From the IMG/VR virus record IMGVR_UViG_3300044712_000991, positions 1-64,000 of that record: DNA of 64,000 nt; one strand, written 5' to 3'. Shown here in pieces: positions 24,228-55,094 of this stretch (positions are counted from its first letter, which is position 1; every line of letters begins with the position of its first letter). The notes under the pieces were generated by a model. The model had not been told where the DNA came from. It did no database searches and worked only from the letters and a program-made list of their open reading frames with translations. A program made the position numbers and the translations under genes. The stretch comes from a virus.

Positions 24228-25880
<1,653 letters not shown>

Positions 25881-45001: not shown

Positions 45002-47548
45002 TCAATCACACTTGGTATTCTCCTGCCCACAGGTTTCACACAGGTAGACCTCACACCCCGCACGGGTGATAACATCCACCTTGGGGCTCCCGCAGTTTGG
45101 GCACTTCCTGCTGATCCTGCTCTTGGTCTGCGCCTTGACGTACTTCTTGAGCACCCGCGCAATGGCCTTGCTGAAGTCCACGATGCTGTCGCCCGACTTC
45201 TGAAGTTGATCCACGATGAACGCGATGTCCGCGCCATGCCGGAGATTGGTGGATATCATACGGGTCATCGCCGCCTGCTCATCGTTCTCAAACACCTCTT
45301 GGATGTTCATGCGGGTACCGTTGGTCTCAAGCATGTACTTGTTGCTCGCGACCTTCACGATGCTCCCACTCGTGTACGAGTCGTCCAGTTCCACCTTGGT
45401 CTGCTTCCCGGCGAACACCTCGTACGGCTGATCGTGAAGCATCCCCACCATGACCACCCACACCTTGCCCTTGACCGTCGTGTGGTGGATGTCGCACCGG
45501 AGGACATCGGGTCGTTTCGGGGCATCGTGACGAACAATCTTCTGTGGCCGGATAGATGAGGCGGGGTTGGAGGTGCCATCGAGGGTCTCCAGAATCTGCT
45601 GTTTCGATCCATCGACGTAGACCGTAGTGCTCTTGATGTGCCCGAGTTCGTACGCATATTCGTACGCCCTCTTGACATCCGCCACCGTGGCCGAGCGGGG
45701 GAGATTGATGGTCTTGCTCACGCTACTATCGATGTACTCTGCGAACACATCCTGCATCAGGAGGTGATCCTTCCAAGAGATGTCGTGCGACCACTCGAAG
45801 TAGTCGGGGGTGTTCTTCTCCCCATGCTTCTCCACATACTCGATATAGTCAAAACAACCGTCTCGGTACGATCCAACACGGGAGTTGCGGGTGAACATAC
45901 CCGCGAAATGTGGCTCACAACTCGCGGATGTGCCCCAAATGGTGCCCGTGGTGCCGAAGGGCGGGATGGTGTTGACCGTCACATTGCGAACGCCGTAGAC
46001 CTTGATGTCCTGCTGAATATCCTCCGGCAACGACTTGAAGAACTCGCTCTTGGAGTACCCCTCAAAGTCAAACGCCGGAAACGCCCCATCGGTCTTAGCG
46101 AGTTCGATGGATGCCCTATAGGACTCGTCCCGCAGAAACTTCACCCACTGCCTCACCCACGCCCTGCCCTCAGGACTTGAGTACTTGAGTTTGTTGCGGA
46201 TGAGCGCATCGTGCCACCCCGTGACACCCAACCCGATACGGCGCTCGTTCAACACGCTCGCATCGATCTCGGGGATGCCCGTGCGGGTCACATCCGTTAC
46301 GAGGTTCAGCATGTACACCCCGTACTGTATGGCCTCCCTGAACAGGTCTTCGTTGACCGTACCATCTTCGTTCAAGCAGTAGTAGATGTTCACACCCCCC
46401 AGACAGCACACTCCGTTCTTCGGTAGAGGTTGCTCCCCACAGGGGTTGGTGCTCACAATGGGATTGAAGTACTCCCCATTGTGGTACTTCCGGATACGAT
46501 CGATGAAGATGATACCTGGGCACCCATCATCGTGCGCATTCTTGGCAATACGGTGCCACAACTGCGCGACCGTGAGATTGTAGTTAGCCTTCACGAGTTT
46601 GAAATCGGGGGGCTTGTTGTTGAACGGGAGTTGCGACAGGACTTTACCCTCGGCCATCGCCTCATCCACAGCAGTGACCTCCCAGTCCCTACCGTACGCC
46701 TTGTACTTCCAGACCTTCCAGGGGGTGCCCTGCCAGTTGAACTCCCACTCCGTGTCCGGAGCATCCTTGAGAAGCCCCATGAACTTATCGGAGAGCCCTA
46801 CGGAGACGTTGAAGTACTGCCACTCATAGGCGTTACCCCACTCAAACAGCTTGTACCCCTCCTGGTCGTAGATATTCGCGAACTGCTTGAACTGTTGAAT
46901 CCAGTTGTGATCTGTTTTCCAGTTGATGAAGTCGAGGAGATCGGGATGCCAGTCATCGAGTTTGCCCATGTTGGCTCCCGACCGATTGCCCCCCTGCTGT
47001 ACGAGGGATGCTTGCTGGGATATGAGACTGATCCACCCGATGGCACCACACGAACGGCTCTGATTACCGGCCACCCATGACCACCGTGGTCTCCACACCG
47101 AGGCATCAATGCCCGTGCCTCCTCCACCACTCTGGATAAGGAGGTGTTGATGCATGAGAGCCGAAATCTCCTCCCGGGTGTCACCACTACCGAGAACAAA
47201 GCAGTTGTTGAGATTCTGTACCCGTGTACCTGCCTGTGCGAGAATTCGCCCCCCACCCATCAACCGCCTGTCAAGCATGTTGCGTAACAAATCCATTGCC
47301 CTACGCATGGGTGCAGTAACCCCATTCGGCGTAGCTATCGGATGCGCAATGACCCATCCAATCTCCTCGGAGCGCTCTATCGTAAACCGATATCCCGTCA
47401 GGTATGCCACAACCCGCACGAATACTTCGGAAATGTCGGTCTCCACGGGTTCTCCCGTGGGACCTTTGAGATAGTAGCGATCTTGTGCGATTTCCGCATG
47501 AACTGGGTGGCGGAAAAACCAATGCTTATACGGGGTGACCTCGGACAT
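45002..47548 (-). CDS. nrdJ: Class II (adenosylcobalamin-dependent) ribonucleotide reductase
   Basis: LNNCFV, STNPCGEQPL, CCLG and TIPPFGT. C-terminal TSCPD-like region and CxxC Zn ribbon. No beta-subunit gene adjacent. Confidence 0.88.
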   Translation of the reverse strand: MSEVTPYKHWFFRHPVHAEIAQDRYYLKGPTGEPVETDISEVFVRVVAYLTGYRFTIERSEEIGWVIAHPIATPNGVTAPMRRAMDLLRNMLDRRLMGGGRILAQAGTRVQNLNNCFVLGSGDTREEISALMHQHLLIQSGGGGTGIDASVWRPRWSWVAGNQSRSCGAIGWISLISQQASLVQQGGNRSGANMGKLDDWHPDLLDFINWKTDHNWIQQFKQFANIYDQEGYKLFEWGNAYEWQYFNVSVGLSDKFMGLLKDAPDTEWEFNWQGTPWKVWKYKAYGRDWEVTAVDEAMAEGKVLSQLPFNNKPPDFKLVKANYNLTVAQLWHRIAKNAHDDGCPGIIFIDRIRKYHNGEYFNPIVSTNPCGEQPLPKNGVCCLGGVNIYYCLNEDGTVNEDLFREAIQYGVYMLNLVTDVTRTGIPEIDASVLNERRIGLGVTGWHDALIRNKLKYSSPEGRAWVRQWVKFLRDESYRASIELAKTDGAFPAFDFEGYSKSEFFKSLPEDIQQDIKVYGVRNVTVNTIPPFGTTGTIWGTSASCEPHFAGMFTRNSRVGSYRDGCFDYIEYVEKHGEKNTPDYFEWSHDISWKDHLLMQDVFAEYIDSSVSKTINLPRSATVADVKRAYEYAYELGHIKSTTVYVDGSKQQILETLDGTSNPASSIRPQKIVRHDAPKRPDVLRCDIHHTTVKGKVWVVMVGMLHDQPYEVFAGKQTKVELDDSYTSGSIVKVASNKYMLETNGTRMNIQEVFENDEQAAMTRMISTNLRHGADIAFIVDQLQKSGDSIVDFSKAIARVLKKYVKAQTKSRISRKCPNCGSPKVDVITRAGCEVYLCETCGQENTKCD

Positions 47549-47621: not shown

Positions 47622-48323
47622 TCAGAAGTATCTACCGAGTTTCCCTTCCTTAGCGAGTTCCCGAAGATGTAGGAGAGCCTTGTCACGAATCTGCCGCACA
47701 CGCACGAACTTGATGTGTAGTTGCTGCCCTATGGACTCCAGAGTCTGGTTCTCTGAGTTGTTTTCACTGAGAGTGTAGTACAGGCGTAGGATGGCCGCCT
47801 CACGAGGTTCGAGATGGGACAGCAAAAACTCCTGGATATCGGCTGCCGCCACAGTATCTACCTCATGCGTGTCAGTACACATGTACGCCTTCGCATCCTC
47901 AACATCGATCTTTCGCCTACTGGAGGTGTCCACAGTCTCATCCGTGGACAACGCGGCCATCTTCTTGTCGTACAGGTTATTGACCGCCAATGAGTGCCTG
48001 ATGTAGAACCGTATCCAATGAACGACGTAGGAAAACAACTTTATCTCGGGGAATCGTACGGTGTCAAACTTCTGTACGCCCACCATGAGCCCCGTGTTGC
48101 CCTCCTGAATGATGTCCATGATGTCCATTGTCGGGGGGATGCTGTACTCCTTGAGGATGAACACCACGAAGCGCATGTTAGACATCACTAGCCTATCTAA
48201 CGCTCGTAGATCGCGAGTTTCCCTGTAGCGCATAAGTAGCGCTTTCTCTTCTTCGCGATTGGTGATGGGATTGTACTGCGGTTTGCCTAGTTCTTGCTTG
48301 TACGTCTCAAATTGCGAGAGCAT
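47622..48323 (-). CDS. RNA polymerase sigma70-family factor
   Basis: Region 1.2 EEKALL. Region 2 SNMRFVV...DIIQEGNTGL...KFD...SYVVHWIR. Region 4 TLESIGQQL...VRVRQIRDKAL. Confidence 0.9.
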   Translation of the reverse strand: MLSQFETYKQELGKPQYNPITNREEEKALLMRYRETRDLRALDRLVMSNMRFVVFILKEYSIPPTMDIMDIIQEGNTGLMVGVQKFDTVRFPEIKLFSYVVHWIRFYIRHSLAVNNLYDKKMAALSTDETVDTSSRRKIDVEDAKAYMCTDTHEVDTVAAADIQEFLLSHLEPREAAILRLYYTLSENNSENQTLESIGQQLHIKFVRVRQIRDKALLHLRELAKEGKLGRYF

Positions 48324-48328
48324 AAGTG

Positions 48329-49177
48329 CTACCTCCGAATGTCAACGCTACAGCGCCCCATAGAGAGGAACCTGTTGACTTTCCACTTCACATCGCACGC
48401 ATTGCACTCCCCGAACACAGCGCATGGGCGATACTCACTCGTGAGTTGAAGGTCGGGGTCTACAATGGATGCCACGGGGTTCTCCGCACAGTACAGATCG
48501 CGGTGACAACGGTAGATGAGCCCCTCGGGTCCTATGAGAAGTTCGGTGGTCTTGCATGTTACAGACTCCAGTTTCCCACTCAGAGCCTCGGGATACTTGT
48601 AGAACCCAAACAACTGACCCTCATGGGTGCCCAAGAAGTCCTTAATGAAGAAGTACACCTGGGCTTTGCGTGCGAGTTCACTCATCTCGATATTGGCGGA
48701 CATGTTCAGCGGGTGACTGATACCGAAGACACCGATGCTGAACCCCGCATCCTGCAAAATCTGGACTTTCCTGATGGTCGCCTGTGCATCCATCTCCGTA
48801 GGATGATAACTCACACGAATGGCCTTGTATGCTGGGTGCACCATCGAACTGAACCTCGCGGGGGACACCCTGCGAATGAAGGTCTCCGTATCGAACTGGC
48901 AGTTGGTCAGCAAATCGACTCCTATCGAGGGATCAAGGAGATCGAGGAGGTCGTAGAAGTCCTTGCGTACTGTGGGCTCACCCCCACCGATGGTCAACGG
49001 GACGGTACCGAAATCTATACGGTTCAGTCCCTCCGCCAAACGTGCTGCGGGCATCTCCCGCCTCCCCCTGCGGAGAGCCCCGAAGTCATTCATGCAGTAC
49101 TCACATGTGAGATTGCACCGGAGCGATGCGTAGAGCTCCGCGTAGTTAACATCGGGTGGTAGGGTTAGTTTACCCAT
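48329..49177 (-). CDS. Radical SAM enzyme with twitch/SPASM-like C-terminus
   Basis: CNLTCEYC, GGGEP and C-terminal C...RCH...C...C..CD. Start refined to MGKLTL. Confidence 0.85.
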   Translation of the reverse strand: MGKLTLPPDVNYAELYASLRCNLTCEYCMNDFGALRRGRREMPAARLAEGLNRIDFGTVPLTIGGGEPTVRKDFYDLLDLLDPSIGVDLLTNCQFDTETFIRRVSPARFSSMVHPAYKAIRVSYHPTEMDAQATIRKVQILQDAGFSIGVFGISHPLNMSANIEMSELARKAQVYFFIKDFLGTHEGQLFGFYKYPEALSGKLESVTCKTTELLIGPEGLIYRCHRDLYCAENPVASIVDPDLQLTSEYRPCAVFGECNACDVKWKVNRFLSMGRCSVDIRR

Positions 49178-50909
49178 GAAGGTACTCCCGTATTTCTTGA
49201 ATCTGCTGTTCGGAGAACTCGGGAGATGCGTACTCCAAGGACTTGCCGAACACGAGTTTGGGGACAATCTTTTGCCCCTTGCCTATACCCACGGAGGTCA
49301 CGCACGCCCCCGACTCTCCAAGTGCACGGTCCACACCACCACGGATATCCGACCGCGACACAATACAATGTACGGCGATGCCGTACGCCTTAGCGACTAG
49401 CAGTTCGTCTCCGAACGGACCATCCACCGCCACGTGATGCCCCGCAAGCCACGTATCCTGTGTTTGCCGAATCATCCCGTAGCCAGCATTGTTCAGAACG
49501 AAGACCTTGATGTTGGTCTTCGCTAGAAGTGCTAGTTCTTGAATATTCATCTGAAAACTACCATCCCCGATAATGCAGATTACCTGCTTATCGGGATTGG
49601 CGTAGTAGGCACCGATGCTCGCCGGAAGAGCGTACCCCATGGGGCTGTTATTGAACGCGGTGAACAACCGCTGTCCCACTGTGACTCGCCAGCCCTGCAT
49701 CGTCCACACGACTGTACACCCCGCATCCGTCACTATCACCGCATCTCTCTTAGCAGCATCCGAAAGGAACTGCATGAACACATACGGATTGACATCCGTC
49801 TCGTGATGATAGTCCTTTGGGCAAATGGGAAGAAGGGAACGCAGTTGTCTCGCCTTGGTTGCCCACGCCGAGAAGTCGCAAACGGTGTCCTTCATGTACA
49901 CCACAAACATGTGGATGGGCGCACGAACAGTGATATCCACATGGTCGGCAATACGCTCCAACTCCGCTTCATCGATATCCACAACGACCTTCTTGGCCTT
50001 CGTAGCAAACGTCGAGAGTTTTGCCCCCACCTCGTGTGTATCTAGGCGTGTGCCAAGACAGATAAGGAGGTCTGCCTCTTGGATAACAAAGTTGGTGGCT
50101 CTCTGTGCGGTGACTCCGAAGTCTCGGAGGTTCAACGGATCAGCATCATCCATGATGTCCAGGGCACCCCATGTGAGTGCCACGGGCATATTCCACTTGC
50201 GTGCAAGCTCGATTACCTCCTGCTCACTGTTGGACAACCTTGCCCCCGCACCCACCACGAGCACCGGCCGCTTCGCCTCACTCAATAGTTCCTGGACTTT
50301 GGCGATTTTTTCGCCCACCGCATCCTCCGACAACTCGGACATCAAGATGCTCATATGATCTGGCTGGAATATTACATCCTCCATCTCCTGCCTCTGAACA
50401 TCATCACAGATGTCGATAAGGACTGGACCTCTGCGACCACTCCAAAGTTCCGTAAGAGCCGCTTCGAACGTTGGTACAACCTCCTCCACTCGCGATATAC
50501 GCCACGCACGCTTCACAACGGGTGTGAAGATACTCACCACATCCGTCTCCTGGAACCCAACCTGCCGCACGCTGTTGTATCGCAGTTGCTCCGCAGGCAC
50601 CTGCCCGGAGATGATGAGTACTGGAATGGAATCAAACCACGAACAGGCAGTACCCGTAAGGAGATTGGTCGCCCCAGGACCCGAGGTCACTACGACCACC
50701 CCGCACTTGTGCTCCGCTATGTTCAACCGAGCATACGCATCGGCCATCATGGCCGCGCCCTGCTCATGATTGGGTGTTACGAGAGCAAGCCCCTCGGTCT
50801 TAGCGATAGAGTCGAAGATGTTCGTGATGGCACCCCCGGTGATACCAAACACGGTGTCCGTCCATTTCTGGAGGTTACGGGCAATACAGTCGCTGACCTT
50901 TACTTTCAT
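49170..50909 (-). CDS. ThDP-dependent acetolactate-synthase-like enzyme (possible YerE-type carboligase)
   Basis: NHEQGAAMMADAYAR, TSGPGATN, ISGQV, MGYALPASIG and the ThDP motif GDGSFQMN...NN. Confidence 0.9.
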   Translation of the reverse strand: MKVKVSDCIARNLQKWTDTVFGITGGAITNIFDSIAKTEGLALVTPNHEQGAAMMADAYARLNIAEHKCGVVVVTSGPGATNLLTGTACSWFDSIPVLIISGQVPAEQLRYNSVRQVGFQETDVVSIFTPVVKRAWRISRVEEVVPTFEAALTELWSGRRGPVLIDICDDVQRQEMEDVIFQPDHMSILMSELSEDAVGEKIAKVQELLSEAKRPVLVVGAGARLSNSEQEVIELARKWNMPVALTWGALDIMDDADPLNLRDFGVTAQRATNFVIQEADLLICLGTRLDTHEVGAKLSTFATKAKKVVVDIDEAELERIADHVDITVRAPIHMFVVYMKDTVCDFSAWATKARQLRSLLPICPKDYHHETDVNPYVFMQFLSDAAKRDAVIVTDAGCTVVWTMQGWRVTVGQRLFTAFNNSPMGYALPASIGAYYANPDKQVICIIGDGSFQMNIQELALLAKTNIKVFVLNNAGYGMIRQTQDTWLAGHHVAVDGPFGDELLVAKAYGIAVHCIVSRSDIRGGVDRALGESGACVTSVGIGKGQKIVPKLVFGKSLEYASPEFSEQQIQEIREYLHG

Positions 50910-50919
50910 ACTTCCCCTG

Positions 50920-51537
50920 TCAAAGTGCGTTGATGATAGCCACTGTAGCCGGAGTGACCTCAAAGAACACTACCGCCGATCCACCGACATGCAGGATGTC
51001 CATTTGCTTACTCAGCCCGTCGATAAATACATCCACTCCTGGATTGGAGTTAAGGTAGTCATGGTAGGCTATGATCTTCGCACCCAACTTCACCGCGAGT
51101 TTTGTGTCGATCTTGACGTTCTCAGCGTCATGATTACCATCAATGAACACCATGTCGTACACCTCGTTACCGCGAGGCACATACTCAGAGGTATCTGCCT
51201 TCTCTAGCACGATGGGCGTGATGCCCACAAAGTACTTCCCATACCTATCGAGATTGGAATGATATCCGGCCCCTCCACCAACAAAGTCCTGGCAGATGTC
51301 TATGGACTTCTGTCTGTGCAGGTCGGAGTTCAACCAGAAACACAGTGATCCGTAACCCTCCCACGTACCTATCTCACACAGGGAGTGCACATTGTGGTTG
51401 TGGATAATCCACAGGATGGCCGCATAGTCGTTCACGATGTTCGGAAAATGCGGACCGTAGGTGTTCACAAAGCGGGTCAAAAAGTGCACGACCTGCATGC
51501 GTTCAGATTCATAACAGGGAGCTACTGGGCGTATCAT
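50920..51537 (-). CDS. Class I SAM-dependent methyltransferase (Methyltransf_24-like)
   Basis: EIGTWEG, SID, VFIDGNHD and AYHDY. Confidence 0.8.
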   Translation of the reverse strand: MIRPVAPCYESERMQVVHFLTRFVNTYGPHFPNIVNDYAAILWIIHNHNVHSLCEIGTWEGYGSLCFWLNSDLHRQKSIDICQDFVGGGAGYHSNLDRYGKYFVGITPIVLEKADTSEYVPRGNEVYDMVFIDGNHDAENVKIDTKLAVKLGAKIIAYHDYLNSNPGVDVFIDGLSKQMDILHVGGSAVVFFEVTPATVAIINAL

Positions 51538-52640
51538 ATGAAGTTCACTCCCTTCGGCTTGTTCTTGTATGTGTAGGCGAACTCGTTACATTTGTCCTGC
51601 CGACAACAGCCGTGACACATGGTGTGCACATCGAACTCCTTGTCCATGAAGCGCACGATGTCCCAGTAGCGGTCGCTCGACCACATCTCTTCCAGGCTCT
51701 GCTCGTGGAGGTTACCAAAACGGAAGTCCTTCCACTGGGGCTTGCCGCCGAACATGTACCCACAAGGGTACCAGTCACCATTGCCACTCACTTCGGAGAT
51801 GAACGGTATGGAGGAGCAGTTCTCGTACGGCTTCTCCCCCTTCTGCTGAATAAGCGTCCACTTGGGGATGATCTGTGTCTGCTTGGTGCTCAGCGCCTCC
51901 ACCCGTTTGAGCAAATCCACTATCTCCGGCCGGTCGTAGTCGCTCATCTCGAAGTGCACCATCCCACTCTCCCCACCATCGGGCAGAGAACACTGTTTGA
52001 TGACATGGTAGTCCACTCCGACCTCGACCGCGAACTTCGCGAGCGCTTCCAGCTCGTTCGGCATGTCACCCGATGGTACGAACACCGTCTGCAACCCGAT
52101 GTCACAGGTCAGACCGTGCTTGTGCTTGTACTCGACCATCCTACGGATGTTGTCCAAGACCATATTCCGCGCCTTCTCGGACACCCGATGAATGGAGGCG
52201 TATCCCTCGACCGTGAAGGCCGAGATGTTGAAGCGCATCCACTCACAGCTCTCTAGCACGGTCGCAATCCGCTCGTCGGTGTTCAGCAGAATGCCCGAGG
52301 TGGAGATGCTCAGACTCAGCCCTTCCTTCTTACCCACTTGAAGAGCCTCATACAACGCAGGGTTCAGCGTGGGGTCGCCATCTCCGATGAACGCAAGACT
52401 CCTAAGACCTATCCGAGCGCCGGAGCGTACGAGATTCTCCACGAGCGCATCGCGGGACATCACCTCGCCCGTCATGTTCTGGAAAAATCCGTAGCAATAA
52501 ATACAACGCTCGTTGCACTTCTTGGTCAGCCCCGCATCGATATGCACGGGCGGCACGCGTTCCCCCCTGTCCAACCATGCCATGACCCTATCCATGTGCC
52601 ACAGCATCTTGGTATCATCCATCCGCCGTTCTTTATCCAT
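51534..52640 (-). CDS. Radical SAM/SPASM enzyme
   Basis: CNERCIYC, GDGDP and C-terminal C...YPC...GNL...C.GCC. Start coupled to the panB stop (TGATG). Confidence 0.88.
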   Translation of the reverse strand: MDKERRMDDTKMLWHMDRVMAWLDRGERVPPVHIDAGLTKKCNERCIYCYGFFQNMTGEVMSRDALVENLVRSGARIGLRSLAFIGDGDPTLNPALYEALQVGKKEGLSLSISTSGILLNTDERIATVLESCEWMRFNISAFTVEGYASIHRVSEKARNMVLDNIRRMVEYKHKHGLTCDIGLQTVFVPSGDMPNELEALAKFAVEVGVDYHVIKQCSLPDGGESGMVHFEMSDYDRPEIVDLLKRVEALSTKQTQIIPKWTLIQQKGEKPYENCSSIPFISEVSGNGDWYPCGYMFGGKPQWKDFRFGNLHEQSLEEMWSSDRYWDIVRFMDKEFDVHTMCHGCCRQDKCNEFAYTYKNKPKGVNFI

Positions 52641-53596
52641 CAAAGAGGCCTCCATATTGGGCTTGTTTTAAGTTCTTCTAGTTCCTGAAGCGTAAGAGGA
52701 TAACTGTACTCCTCGCCAGGGAACACATTAGACTTCACATCGCGTACATAGGCCTCGATGGCCAGTCGAGCGAGTGTCAACAGACCATCCTGCCGGGTAT
52801 CCCGACCAAACGCCCTCACATCCCCCACTTTGGTGACCACCGTGCGGTAGGCATCGATCACTTGCGGAACATAGCACTTGGCAAACCACGGGCGAAACGA
52901 CTGGTAGAAGCCCATCAGATCATGCATGATGACCAACTGCCCATCCACACCCGCTCCCGCCCCGATACCGTAGATGGGAATCCGCAACTGCTTGGCGATG
53001 TTCTCGGCGGGAAGTGTCGGCATAGCCTCTAGAAGGATAGAGAACGCCCCTGCTCGTTCAAGAGCAACGGCATCGGTGAGCGTGTGCTCGAAGGATGCGG
53101 CGGTCTTACCCTGAATCCTATACCCTCCGAAGGAGGCGGCACTCTGCGGGGTGAGACCGAGGTGCCCCATCACGAGAATACCCGCATCCGCAATGGCCTT
53201 CACTCGGGGGCACATCCGTACCCCACCCTCAAGTTTCACAGCATCACATCCCGCTTCCTTCACGAACCTCAGAGCGTTTCGCACAGCATCCTCATCGCTT
53301 ACCTCGTACGCCCCCTGGGGCATATCCCCGATGATGAACGTGTTGGGCGCACCCTTACGCACGGCCTTGGCGAACTGAATCATCTCATCCATCGTCACGG
53401 GATTCGTAGTCTGGTACCCCAACTGCACCATACCGCCCGAGTCCCCCACCAGGATCATATCCACACCCGCTTGCTCAGCGGTGTACGCGAACGGATAGTC
53501 GTAGGCGGTTATCCACGCCACACGCTGCCCCTTCGCCTTCATCGCCTGTAGACCCAAAAGGGTCACCTTCTTCTTCGCGCTACCATCTTCAGCCAT
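52640..53596 (-). CDS. panB: Ketopantoate hydroxymethyltransferase-like (PanB)
   Basis: TAYD, LVGDS, GDMP, KLEGG, GHLGLTPQS, LEA, GIGAG and DGQ. Confidence 0.93.
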   Translation of the reverse strand: MAEDGSAKKKVTLLGLQAMKAKGQRVAWITAYDYPFAYTAEQAGVDMILVGDSGGMVQLGYQTTNPVTMDEMIQFAKAVRKGAPNTFIIGDMPQGAYEVSDEDAVRNALRFVKEAGCDAVKLEGGVRMCPRVKAIADAGILVMGHLGLTPQSAASFGGYRIQGKTAASFEHTLTDAVALERAGAFSILLEAMPTLPAENIAKQLRIPIYGIGAGAGVDGQLVIMHDLMGFYQSFRPWFAKCYVPQVIDAYRTVVTKVGDVRAFGRDTRQDGLLTLARLAIEAYVRDVKSNVFPGEEYSYPLTLQELEELKTSPIWRPL

Positions 53597-54353: not shown

Positions 54354-55094
54354 CTACCGTGTGACAACCGCAGTGTTGGTAGAAGGAAGAACAAGCCTCT
54401 CTAGGTCGGGGTCTACCCTAGCAATCGCGGCCTCAGGTGATCTCGTGGCTTGCACAAACCTGTCCACGGGTCCTGGACCTCCCCCCTCGCTCTCCATATC
54501 CGCCACACAGTACTGTCGGCGTGCACCGCGCTCCAACAACGCTGCATCCGAACTGATACGGCAAGAGTTCTCGAACAGTACGACCTCCGAAACCACAGGA
54601 ATACCCGAATGCTGTCCTTGCAGATGCACATGGTACTTCCGAGTCTCATCATACCGCAGACCACCCTTGAACAGCCGCATACTCGGACCAATCGGCCACT
54701 TGAAGAAGTGGTACGCATCCTTCACGGTGAACAGGAGCATCATGTCCCAGTAGTTGCTGATAACGAACACCCCGGTCTTCAGCCAGTCCGCGAAGTTGGT
54801 AGTCCACGTCATGTCCGCATCGGGTACAAAGATGTAGTCCCCCGTACACTGGTCGAGACCGTAGTTCATCTGCGCTCTCGTGAAGTCCCATGGGCGTTCG
54901 AACACACGCAACGGCACACGATCCTTATACTCCTCGACCACAGCCAACGTGTTATCCTTGCTCCCACCATCAACCAGCACGACCTCTTTCAAATCGGGGA
55001 AGTTCTGTGCCAGGTGAGCGCAGGATTCAAGATACCACCGGATGGGCTCTTCCTCATCCTGCATGATGGTCATGATGGACACTGATTGTCCCAT
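54354..55094 (-). CDS. GT2-family glycosyltransferase
   Basis: MQDEE, VDGGSKDNT and PDADM. Confidence 0.85.
   Translation of the reverse strand: MGQSVSIMTIMQDEEEPIRWYLESCAHLAQNFPDLKEVVLVDGGSKDNTLAVVEEYKDRVPLRVFERPWDFTRAQMNYGLDQCTGDYIFVPDADMTWTTNFADWLKTGVFVISNYWDMMLLFTVKDAYHFFKWPIGPSMRLFKGGLRYDETRKYHVHLQGQHSGIPVVSEVVLFENSCRISSDAALLERGARRQYCVADMESEGGGPGPVDRFVQATRSPEAAIARVDPDLERLVLPSTNTAVVTR

Follow-up and report, generated by a model that had tools for sequence, protein, structure and literature searches.

Three classes of thiamine diphosphate (ThDP)-dependent enzyme are known to branch keto sugars, namely, decarboxylases (the YerE-like enzymes), E1-type enzymes, and transketolase-type enzymes (2025 review, PMC12247030). 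In the clusters for erwiniose (Pectobacterium atrosepticum; the ErwI/ErwJ aldolase-dehydrogenase, the ThDP enzyme ErwE, and the reductase ErwF), caryophyllose (MMAR_2331/2332), and gastriose (MygI/MygE/MygF), the gene adjoining that of the YerE-like enzyme makes a gamma-hydroxy 2-oxoacid, which serves as the ThDP donor to a keto sugar before a reductase acts, and of 4-hydroxy-2-oxobutanoate and pyruvate, ErwE uses only the former (Steitz et al. 2022, PMC9306805). Here we describe a five-gene cassette in the genome of an uncultured phage (IMG/VR record IMGVR_UViG_3300044712_000991; 194,278 bases, rated complete by CheckV), which encodes a long-form PanB, a homologue of ketopantoate hydroxymethyltransferase (KPHMT), a radical S-adenosylmethionine (SAM) enzyme with a SPASM domain (rSAM-SPASM), a methyltransferase, a YerE-like ThDP enzyme, and a second, small radical SAM enzyme (small rSAM). 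The stretch analyzed, called the window below, is the first 64 kb of that record. On balance, and with moderate confidence, we favor the view that the product of the cassette is a sugar with a carbon branch and probably a methyl group, destined for the glycan that the upstream glycosyltransferases build.

From the gene content, operon structure, conserved co-occurrence, and sequence signatures set out below, we infer the chemical steps, the substrates, and the final acceptor as follows. PanB would use methylene-tetrahydrofolate to hydroxymethylate a small 2-oxoacid, giving a gamma-hydroxy 2-oxoacid like ketopantoate or 4-hydroxy-2-oxobutanoate, and one or both of the radical SAM enzymes would convert a host nucleotide sugar, or a sugar that is already attached, to a keto sugar, replacing the missing short-chain dehydrogenase/reductase (SDR) dehydratase. 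The YerE-like enzyme would decarboxylate the 2-oxoacid and put the acyl unit onto the sugar ketone to leave a tertiary-alcohol branch, the methyltransferase would decorate the product, and the upstream glycosyltransferases would use the finished sugar. By analogy, this would be the erwiniose logic with PanB replacing the aldolase, and KPHMT does form 4-hydroxy-2-oxoacids from varied 2-oxoacids (PMC11331486). As in the erwiniose cluster, a ThDP enzyme of the acetohydroxyacid synthase (AHAS) family lies in a glycan locus beside the proposed maker of a gamma-hydroxy 2-oxoacid. Unlike in that cluster, the donor maker is a folate-dependent PanB rather than a pyruvate aldolase, the genes are in a phage, and two radical SAM enzymes and a methyltransferase are found instead of the CDP-sugar 4,6-dehydratase, 3-dehydrase set, and YerF-type SDR, which the phage lacks.

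A broader proposal, which we put forward more tentatively, is that phages and many uncultured anaerobes share a dehydratase-independent route to carbon branching, in which the radical SAM pair makes and processes a keto sugar and the ThDP enzyme branches it, with PanB supplying a hydroxylated C4-C5 donor in the present case; the branched methylated sugar would then be new to glycans. What is new in the window is the presence of two modules in one operon, with an ALS-like enzyme (ALS, acetolactate synthase) filling the ThDP slot of the radical SAM module, in a complete phage genome without the classical nucleotide-sugar enzymes. In the literature, we found no paper describing a pathway with both PanB and a YerE-like enzyme, and none connecting radical SAM enzymes to ThDP-dependent sugar branching.

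The ThDP enzyme keeps the catalytic HEQ glutamate and the GDGS...NN motif. Four features of its sequence and setting suggest that it is not an AHAS: its scores against curated models, the loss of an acceptor-binding residue, the lack of a small subunit, and its position in a tree. Against the NCBIfam equivalog models for acetolactate synthase (ALS), it stays below all cut-offs (the two best scores are 360.9 bits for a cut-off of 738 and 357 bits for a cut-off of 538.35). Where four canonical AHAS have RFDDR, the window enzyme has RLDTH, so that the acceptor arginine is replaced by histidine; this arginine, Arg276 of Escherichia coli AHAS II, reportedly binds the carboxylate of the acceptor 2-ketoacid. 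Among PDB entries, E. coli AHAS I scores 256 bits and 5AHK, which we take to be PpYerE, scores 252 bits with an end-to-end alignment at ~30% identity. With YerE/PpYerE, the phage enzyme has in common a three-domain AHAS-like fold, and with 5AHK it shares an insertion before RQxGFQE and a C-terminal PKLxFG...SP tail, both missing from canonical AHAS; the bit scores are practically the same for 5AHK and AHAS I, and the shared indels lean toward 5AHK. It differs from YerE of Yersinia pseudotuberculosis (yersiniose A) not only in the low identity and in the histidine but also in that YerE uses pyruvate and a CDP-4-keto-3,6-dideoxyhexose from classical enzymes, which the phage lacks. In a quick, midpoint-rooted tree, which did not include the YerE, ErwE, and MygE sequences, the window enzyme groups with ThDP enzymes of radical SAM contexts, apart from canonical AHAS (Shimodaira-Hasegawa-like approximate likelihood ratio support, 97 to 98).

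Its closest relatives (41 to 45% identity) are likewise those in radical SAM contexts, and RLDTH is common to the clade. Beside the ThDP gene of these relatives, there is usually a class I/II aminotransferase gene, often together with one for a GDP-mannose 4,6-dehydratase; wherever the ALS-like ThDP gene occurs with the radical SAM pair, an aminotransferase gene is its immediate neighbor (L005, L025, L026, L028, L195, L198, L199, and L205). The window has PanB and no class I/II aminotransferase, whereas the relatives mostly have the aminotransferase without PanB, and two loci (L116 and L122) have both. It is possible that this exchange is a swap of the 2-oxoacid donor supply; amination of the ketone in the branch would be an equally good role for the aminotransferase.

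PanB of the window belongs to a long form (~315 amino acids [aa]) that has an insertion of ~27 aa and a C-terminal extension compared with the canonical enzyme (TIGR00222). It is 43% identical to Salmonella PanB, and it keeps, as do 120/120 long-form relatives, the residues that bind the metal and take part in catalysis (the GDS Asp/Ser, a second Asp, Lys-x-Glu, His, and the general-base Glu); we take the roles of these residues to be those described for E. coli PanB (1M3U). The substrate pocket, on the other hand, differs from that of the pantothenate-pathway enzymes. The motifs GDSGGM and DMPQG are invariant in all 120 long-form proteins, whereas four PanBs from pan operons have GDSL(G/A)M and D(L/M)P(F/I) (thus, GDSL becomes GDSG and DxPF(M) becomes DMPQG), and in every one of the 120, the pocket has smaller or more polar residues beside the metal ligands.

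The gene neighborhoods of the long form point the same way. Homologues with 60 to 68% identity adjoin an ALS-like ThDP gene in 12/12 viral loci, with panB directly after the ThDP gene, and the same loci contain SDR/4,6-dehydratase-like and DegT aminotransferase genes with glycosyltransferase genes around them. Among metagenome loci with neighbors on both sides (n = 55), the ThDP gene is adjacent in 29; the other annotated contexts are glycan loci too, with genes for a lyase of the HpcH/CitE kind, a MaoC hydratase, an acyltransferase resembling PglD, a GT2 glycosyltransferase, or a MurJ-type flippase. In the loci examined, panC was never seen beside a long-form PanB gene, whereas the genes for canonical PanBs adjoin panC. 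Judged by these contexts, long-form PanB is probably a glycan enzyme and not a vitamin enzyme.

Three long-form loci (L117:2240-4818, L124:5627-8903, and L148:6093-8628) have the PanB gene flanked by those for the HpcH/CitE-like lyase, MaoC hydratase, and PglD-like hexapeptide acyltransferase, an arrangement that is probably a second use of the clade, for the N-acyl group of an amino sugar. In other metagenome loci (L128, L130 to L137, and L143), the long-form PanB gene is directly followed by that for a conserved 420-aa protein without a Pfam match, so that the two form a recurrent pair. A phosphonate pathway (phosphoenolpyruvate [PEP] mutase plus phosphonopyruvate decarboxylase) was considered and rejected, as PanB of the window matches PEP_mutase with an E value of 1e-4 versus 3e-94 for the PanB family and the middle domain of the ThDP enzyme is of the AHAS type.

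The genome lacks five partners that the two enzymes would have in amino acid or vitamin synthesis. Across the whole 194-kb genome, there is no match to KARI_N (ilvC), ILVD_EDD, or ALS_ss_C and none to Pantoate_ligase (panC) or ApbA/PanE, so that the absence of ilvC, ilvD, ilvN, panC, and panE that an earlier note on this DNA had reported for the window holds for all 194,278 bases. The genome also has no gene for an SDR epimerase/dehydratase, a DegT aminotransferase, or a nucleotidyltransferase, and a keto acceptor must therefore come from elsewhere. The usual neighbors of a YerE-type gene (those for a 4,6-dehydratase and a YerF-type reductase) are absent, and their position is taken by the radical SAM genes.

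Together with the lack of an SDR dehydratase, the predicted fold of rSAM-SPASM makes it plausible that the keto sugar arises by radical SAM chemistry. The rSAM-SPASM protein has a CX3CX2C motif and 6 to 7 additional conserved cysteines; it reaches no NCBIfam family and has no PDB sequence match with an E value below 0.008. Its structural model (predicted local distance difference test [pLDDT] score, 88.5) has as its best fold match in the PDB DesII (Foldseek E value, 7e-17; Z score, 25.1 over 349 residues; 14 to 17% identity), followed by BlsE (Z score, 22.8), peptide radical SAM enzymes of the SuiB, SkfB, and CteB types (20 to 22.6), and BtrN (17.1). DesII acts on TDP-4-amino-4,6-dideoxyglucose or TDP-quinovose, and its product is a 3-keto sugar, the kind of acceptor that a ThDP enzyme needs; like BlsE, it belongs to the enzymes whose substrates are sugar nucleotides or nucleoside sugars. 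Unlike DesII, to which it has no match at the sequence level, the phage protein ends in a Cys-rich domain of the SPASM type. The small rSAM protein has CX3CX2C and five invariant C-terminal cysteines, and its model (pLDDT, 89.8) shows a generic auxiliary-cluster radical SAM fold, with matches at a template modeling (TM) score of ~0.5. A mycofactocin-like system was also considered and set aside, as it gave generic weak matches only (mftC, 33.8 bits for a cut-off of 265; mftF, 32 bits for a cut-off of 182). The methyltransferase has no PDB relative by sequence, and its homologues occur in the same cassette in L003, L028, and ~10 viral loci.

Both radical SAM proteins have hundreds of metagenomic relatives each, at 40 to 97% identity (50 to 97% being common for rSAM-SPASM). 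For many pairs of such relatives, the longest contig is of equal length, a first hint that the two genes travel together. Relatives of rSAM-SPASM and of PanB may in two cases lie on the same contig, as inferred only from equal sizes: for P0001 (rSAM-SPASM, 97% identity) and P0242 (PanB, 88% identity), the longest contig is 10,798 bases in both cases, and for P0115 and P0248, it is 96,881 bases in both.

Scans with an alignment of the small rSAM protein showed how widely the pair travels with a ThDP enzyme. The cellular scan gave 80 loci, belonging to Thermodesulfobacteriota, Bacteriovoracaceae, Planctomycetota, Omnitrophota, DPANN archaea, and other groups, and 78 of them were analyzed for neighbors within 9 kb of the small rSAM gene. 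An rSAM-SPASM gene is present in 54/78 of these, a GT9-like gene in 51/78, a B12-binding radical SAM gene in 48/78, a GT2 gene in 43/78, and a ThDP gene in 41/78, the last encoding an E1 alpha/beta pair, an ALS-like enzyme, or a half-size enzyme split over two genes (E1_dh/DXP-synthase-like plus Transket_pyr). The same alignment gave 66 usable viral loci (single-protein scans with the ThDP enzyme or small rSAM gave none), and rSAM-SPASM was found in 53 and a ThDP enzyme in 55 of these; by kind, there were 37 half-size pairs, 10 ALS-like enzymes, and ~5 E1-like enzymes. The small rSAM protein of one such viral locus (L005) is 51% identical to that of the window. A relative of the 235-aa glycosyltransferase-like protein encoded just upstream of the cassette lies beside the radical SAM pair in 23/66 viral loci, L005 again being an example (31% identity). 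The exchange of ThDP partners beside the radical SAM pair fits the three classes known to branch keto sugars (PMC12247030).

The small rSAM, rSAM-SPASM, the ThDP enzyme, and glycosyltransferases are all present in the window, and we regard the cassette as a hybrid of two widespread glycan modules, namely, this trio of two radical SAM enzymes and a ThDP enzyme, and long-form PanB. Its likeness to the alphaKADH2 (E1 alpha/beta-type) and split transketolase branching enzymes is that the same classes fill the ThDP slot in homologous cassettes. The aldgamycin, kibdelomycin (KbDH), avilamycin, and miharamycin systems, on the other hand, are actinomycete secondary-metabolite pathways with keto sugars made by SDRs or oxidoreductases (PMC12247030), and none of these antibiotic branching systems has been reported with this radical SAM pair or in phages.

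Two arrangements within this module deserve separate mention. The half-size ThDP pair (~215 aa plus ~174 aa; e.g., L022:11912-13086, L197, L218, and L224) is the commonest ThDP partner of the radical SAM pair in phages; known E1 and transketolase enzymes are very much larger, and the pair may correspond to the transketolase-type branching enzymes. In L065 and ~30 further cellular loci of Thermodesulfobacteriota and relatives, an operon encodes, in order, rSAM-SPASM, E1 alpha, E1 beta, a GT2 enzyme, a B12-binding radical SAM enzyme, a GT9-like enzyme, and the small rSAM, and this operon is the cellular counterpart of the phage module.

The layout of the window is given in Table 1. Nearly all of its long open reading frames (ORFs) are on the minus strand, and five of them fill positions 48329 to 53596 with overlaps or gaps of no more than 16 bases, which bears out the tight coupling of five consecutive genes claimed in the earlier note. 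The gene order given there was that of the plus strand; transcription runs the opposite way, from panB through the genes for rSAM-SPASM, the methyltransferase, and the ThDP enzyme to that for the small rSAM.

Table 1. Features of the window discussed in the text, by position
Feature	Position	Strand	Match or domain
GroEL/Cpn60-type chaperonin	24228-25862		
Ribonucleotide reductase	45002-47548	-	C-terminal TSCPD domain
Sigma-70 family factor	47622-48323	-	Regions 2 and 4
Small radical SAM enzyme with Cys-rich C terminus, 282 aa	48329-49177	-	PF04055, E 1e-9
ALS/YerE-like ThDP enzyme, 579 aa	49170-50909	-	TPP_enzyme N, M, and C domains, E 1e-28 to 1e-34
Class I SAM-dependent methyltransferase, 205 aa	50920-51537	-	PF13578 (Methyltransf_24), E 1.3e-7
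rSAM-SPASM, 373 aa	51534-52655	-	PF04055, E 9e-15; PF13186, E 3e-10
PanB, long form, 318 aa	52640-53596	-	PF02548, E 3e-94
Glycosyltransferase-like protein, 235 aa	53596-54303	-	PHROG 14945 "glycosyltransferase," E 1.3e-19
GT2 gene upstream of the cassette	54354-55094		Pfam, E 5e-16

The stop codon of the upstream gene and the start codon of panB overlap by 1 base (TAATG), and AGGAG precedes the ATG at 53596. The panB and rSAM-SPASM genes overlap by 16 bases, and the rSAM-SPASM and methyltransferase genes overlap by 4 bases in the ATGA manner; a gap of 10 bases follows before the ThDP gene, whose start was taken as the ATG at 50909 (the open frame reaches back to a TTG at 50963). The ThDP and small rSAM genes overlap by 8 bases, and another 5 bases separate the latter from a sigma factor gene. 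Because of these overlaps and short gaps, the genes appear to be packed as one unit, and all of the junctions are consistent with one operon that runs from the glycosyltransferase-like gene through the cassette to the sigma factor gene. A scan for consensus promoters and terminators was uninformative and gave no credible internal signal (4 promoter-like sites versus 5.7 expected and weak intragenic hairpins).

The earlier note had placed two GT2 genes upstream of the cassette. One of these is a GT2 gene by Pfam; the product of the other, the gene adjoining panB, has no Pfam match and reaches only the PHROG glycosyltransferase family, although it probably belongs to the same module as the five genes. 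Farther upstream, to ~64.7 kb, there are additional GT2/GT4-type genes and one methyltransferase gene, so that the cassette is coupled to about seven glycosyltransferase and methyltransferase genes. Downstream, the gene for the sigma-70 family factor starts 5 bases past the last stop codon of the cassette and is followed by that for a ribonucleotide reductase; the glycan operon may be cotranscribed with this phage sigma factor.

Several observations weigh against a branched-sugar pathway that includes all five genes. PanB clears the curated equivalog cut-offs (TIGR00222, 276.5 bits for a cut-off of 207.55; NF001452, 308.7 bits for a cut-off of 272), and nothing more than an ordinary ketopantoate enzyme would be needed to account for its sequence taken by itself. 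The only functional tie of PanB to the other four genes is operon coupling: PanB was found in 0/66 viral and 0/78 cellular radical SAM loci and the radical SAM pair was found in 0/85 PanB loci, which is why we consider the window to join two modules that are otherwise apart. All 32 PanB-adjacent ThDP enzymes fall in another clade than the window enzyme, and the RFDDR arginine is kept by 5AHK, so that its loss is not defining for YerE-like enzymes. DesII is ahead of the peptide-modifying radical SAM enzymes by only ~2 Z units, SPASM proteins mostly act on peptides, and the fold of the small rSAM protein does not separate families.

The nearest alternative is the one proposed in the earlier note, in which the ThDP enzyme adds a pyruvate C2 unit to a keto sugar made by the radical SAM enzymes and PanB directly hydroxymethylates the sugar or its new acetyl branch. 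The same context evidence applies to it as to the donor-making scheme, an alpha-hydroxy ketone branch could conceivably chelate the PanB metal as a 2-oxoacid does, and the altered pocket residues of the 120 long-form proteins would admit a bulkier substrate. We nevertheless consider it unlikely. To our knowledge, no PanB accepts a sugar, and all of the residues that hold the carboxylate and keto group of a 2-oxoacid on the metal are kept, in a protein that passes the equivalog cut-offs. In the published clusters, moreover, the enzyme encoded next to the YerE-like enzyme acts on the donor, before the ThDP step, and PanB adjoins the ThDP gene in other loci just as the donor-making aldolase does in the erwiniose cluster (PMC9306805). 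The retained 2-oxoacid-binding residues and this position make it more likely that PanB makes the side-chain donor. It is also conceivable, though quite improbable, that the 2-oxoacid enzymes build an unusual N- or O-linked acyl substituent on a glycan sugar, with no C-C branch. The metagenome loci that combine PanB with the lyase, hydratase, and PglD-like acyltransferase resemble an acyl coenzyme A (acyl-CoA) route to an N-acyl amino sugar, and PanB-ThDP pairs adjoin DegT aminotransferase genes, amino sugars being in need of acyl groups; however, genes for an acyltransferase, CoA ligase, or carrier protein are missing from the cassette and one for a DegT enzyme from the phage, and the ThDP partner is exchanged with classes known for C branching in glycan pathways.

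The two remaining alternatives dissociate part of the cassette from sugars. That the target of the radical SAM enzymes is a peptide or protein (through a cross-link in a virion protein, say, or another posttranslational change) and that they are mere neighbors of sugar genes would agree with the prevalence of peptide maturases among SPASM enzymes and with the SuiB, SkfB, and CteB-type fold matches, which are also top matches for the small rSAM. We regard this as very improbable, given that the pair travels with ThDP enzymes and glycosyltransferases across 144 loci and that the best folds for rSAM-SPASM are those of the sugar-acting DesII and BlsE; no conserved gene for a precursor peptide or for recognition of ribosomally synthesized and posttranslationally modified peptides was noticed, with no search aimed at such genes. 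ALS and PanB catalyze the first committed steps of connected pathways, and the two could also be ordinary auxiliary metabolic genes, a feedback-insensitive ALS and a KPHMT that raise host valine, pantothenate, and CoA. The equivalog scores of PanB and the fact that the best models and PDB matches of the ThDP enzyme are AHAS fit this idea, and algal-virus PanB genes have been read as metabolic genes (PMC6851583). Of all the readings considered, we give this one the least credence: the phage has none of the ilvC, ilvD, small-subunit, panC, and panE genes, the ThDP enzyme has lost the AHAS acceptor arginine and scores below the cut-offs, the genes are translationally coupled among glycan and radical SAM genes, and long-form PanB has an altered pocket and sits in glycan loci wherever its context is seen, whereas canonical PanBs adjoin panC.

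The branched-sugar reading thus retains much of the earlier note, whose interpretation as a whole is partly supported. Glycan synthesis, as opposed to valine or pantothenate synthesis, is upheld by the gene context, the lost AHAS arginine, and the missing pathway genes; YerE-like branching of a keto sugar is the most likely role of the ThDP enzyme, given its context, the same lost arginine, and its exchange with other ThDP classes. The suggestion that radical SAM enzymes are the source of the keto sugar is plausible, in view of the lack of an SDR dehydratase in the phage and the DesII-like fold. Direct sugar hydroxymethylation by PanB is the part that fared less well.

If the cassette is glycan tailoring, calls of "acetolactate synthase" and "ketopantoate hydroxymethyltransferase" as metabolic genes in viruses and metagenomes need correcting. 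The pathway would be a new donor route to acyl-branched sugars, by folate-dependent hydroxymethyl transfer rather than an aldol reaction, and may also have a new acceptor route, with radical SAM enzymes doing the work of an SDR dehydratase. There is a demand in biocatalysis for ThDP enzymes whose products are tertiary alcohols, and viruses have been named as an unexplored source of them (PMC12247030). That the phage devotes a 16-kb island to a glycan with a rare sugar suggests that its virions, its DNA, or the surface of its host are glycosylated, which is relevant to host range and to escape from recognition.

A blastn comparison of the cassette with cultured phages gave no match. Searches of a phage collection by tblastn with the ThDP enzyme and PanB returned mostly host DNA records with canonical ilv and pan operons, which we used as canonical references only. 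One of these, Microcystis phage MaAM05 (L187; MW495066.1, 257372-270208), has a panB region with panB, panC, and sufBCD that resembles a bacterial chromosome; further records (AFYI01 and OR84xxxx) are plainly host contigs, and counts of "phage ALS/PanB" taken from them would be misleading. Finally, the window encodes a GroEL/Cpn60-type chaperonin, and in smaller relatives, a gene of this type lies directly upstream of the glycan island (L004:4073-5497, L005:919-2337, and L028:2568-3992).

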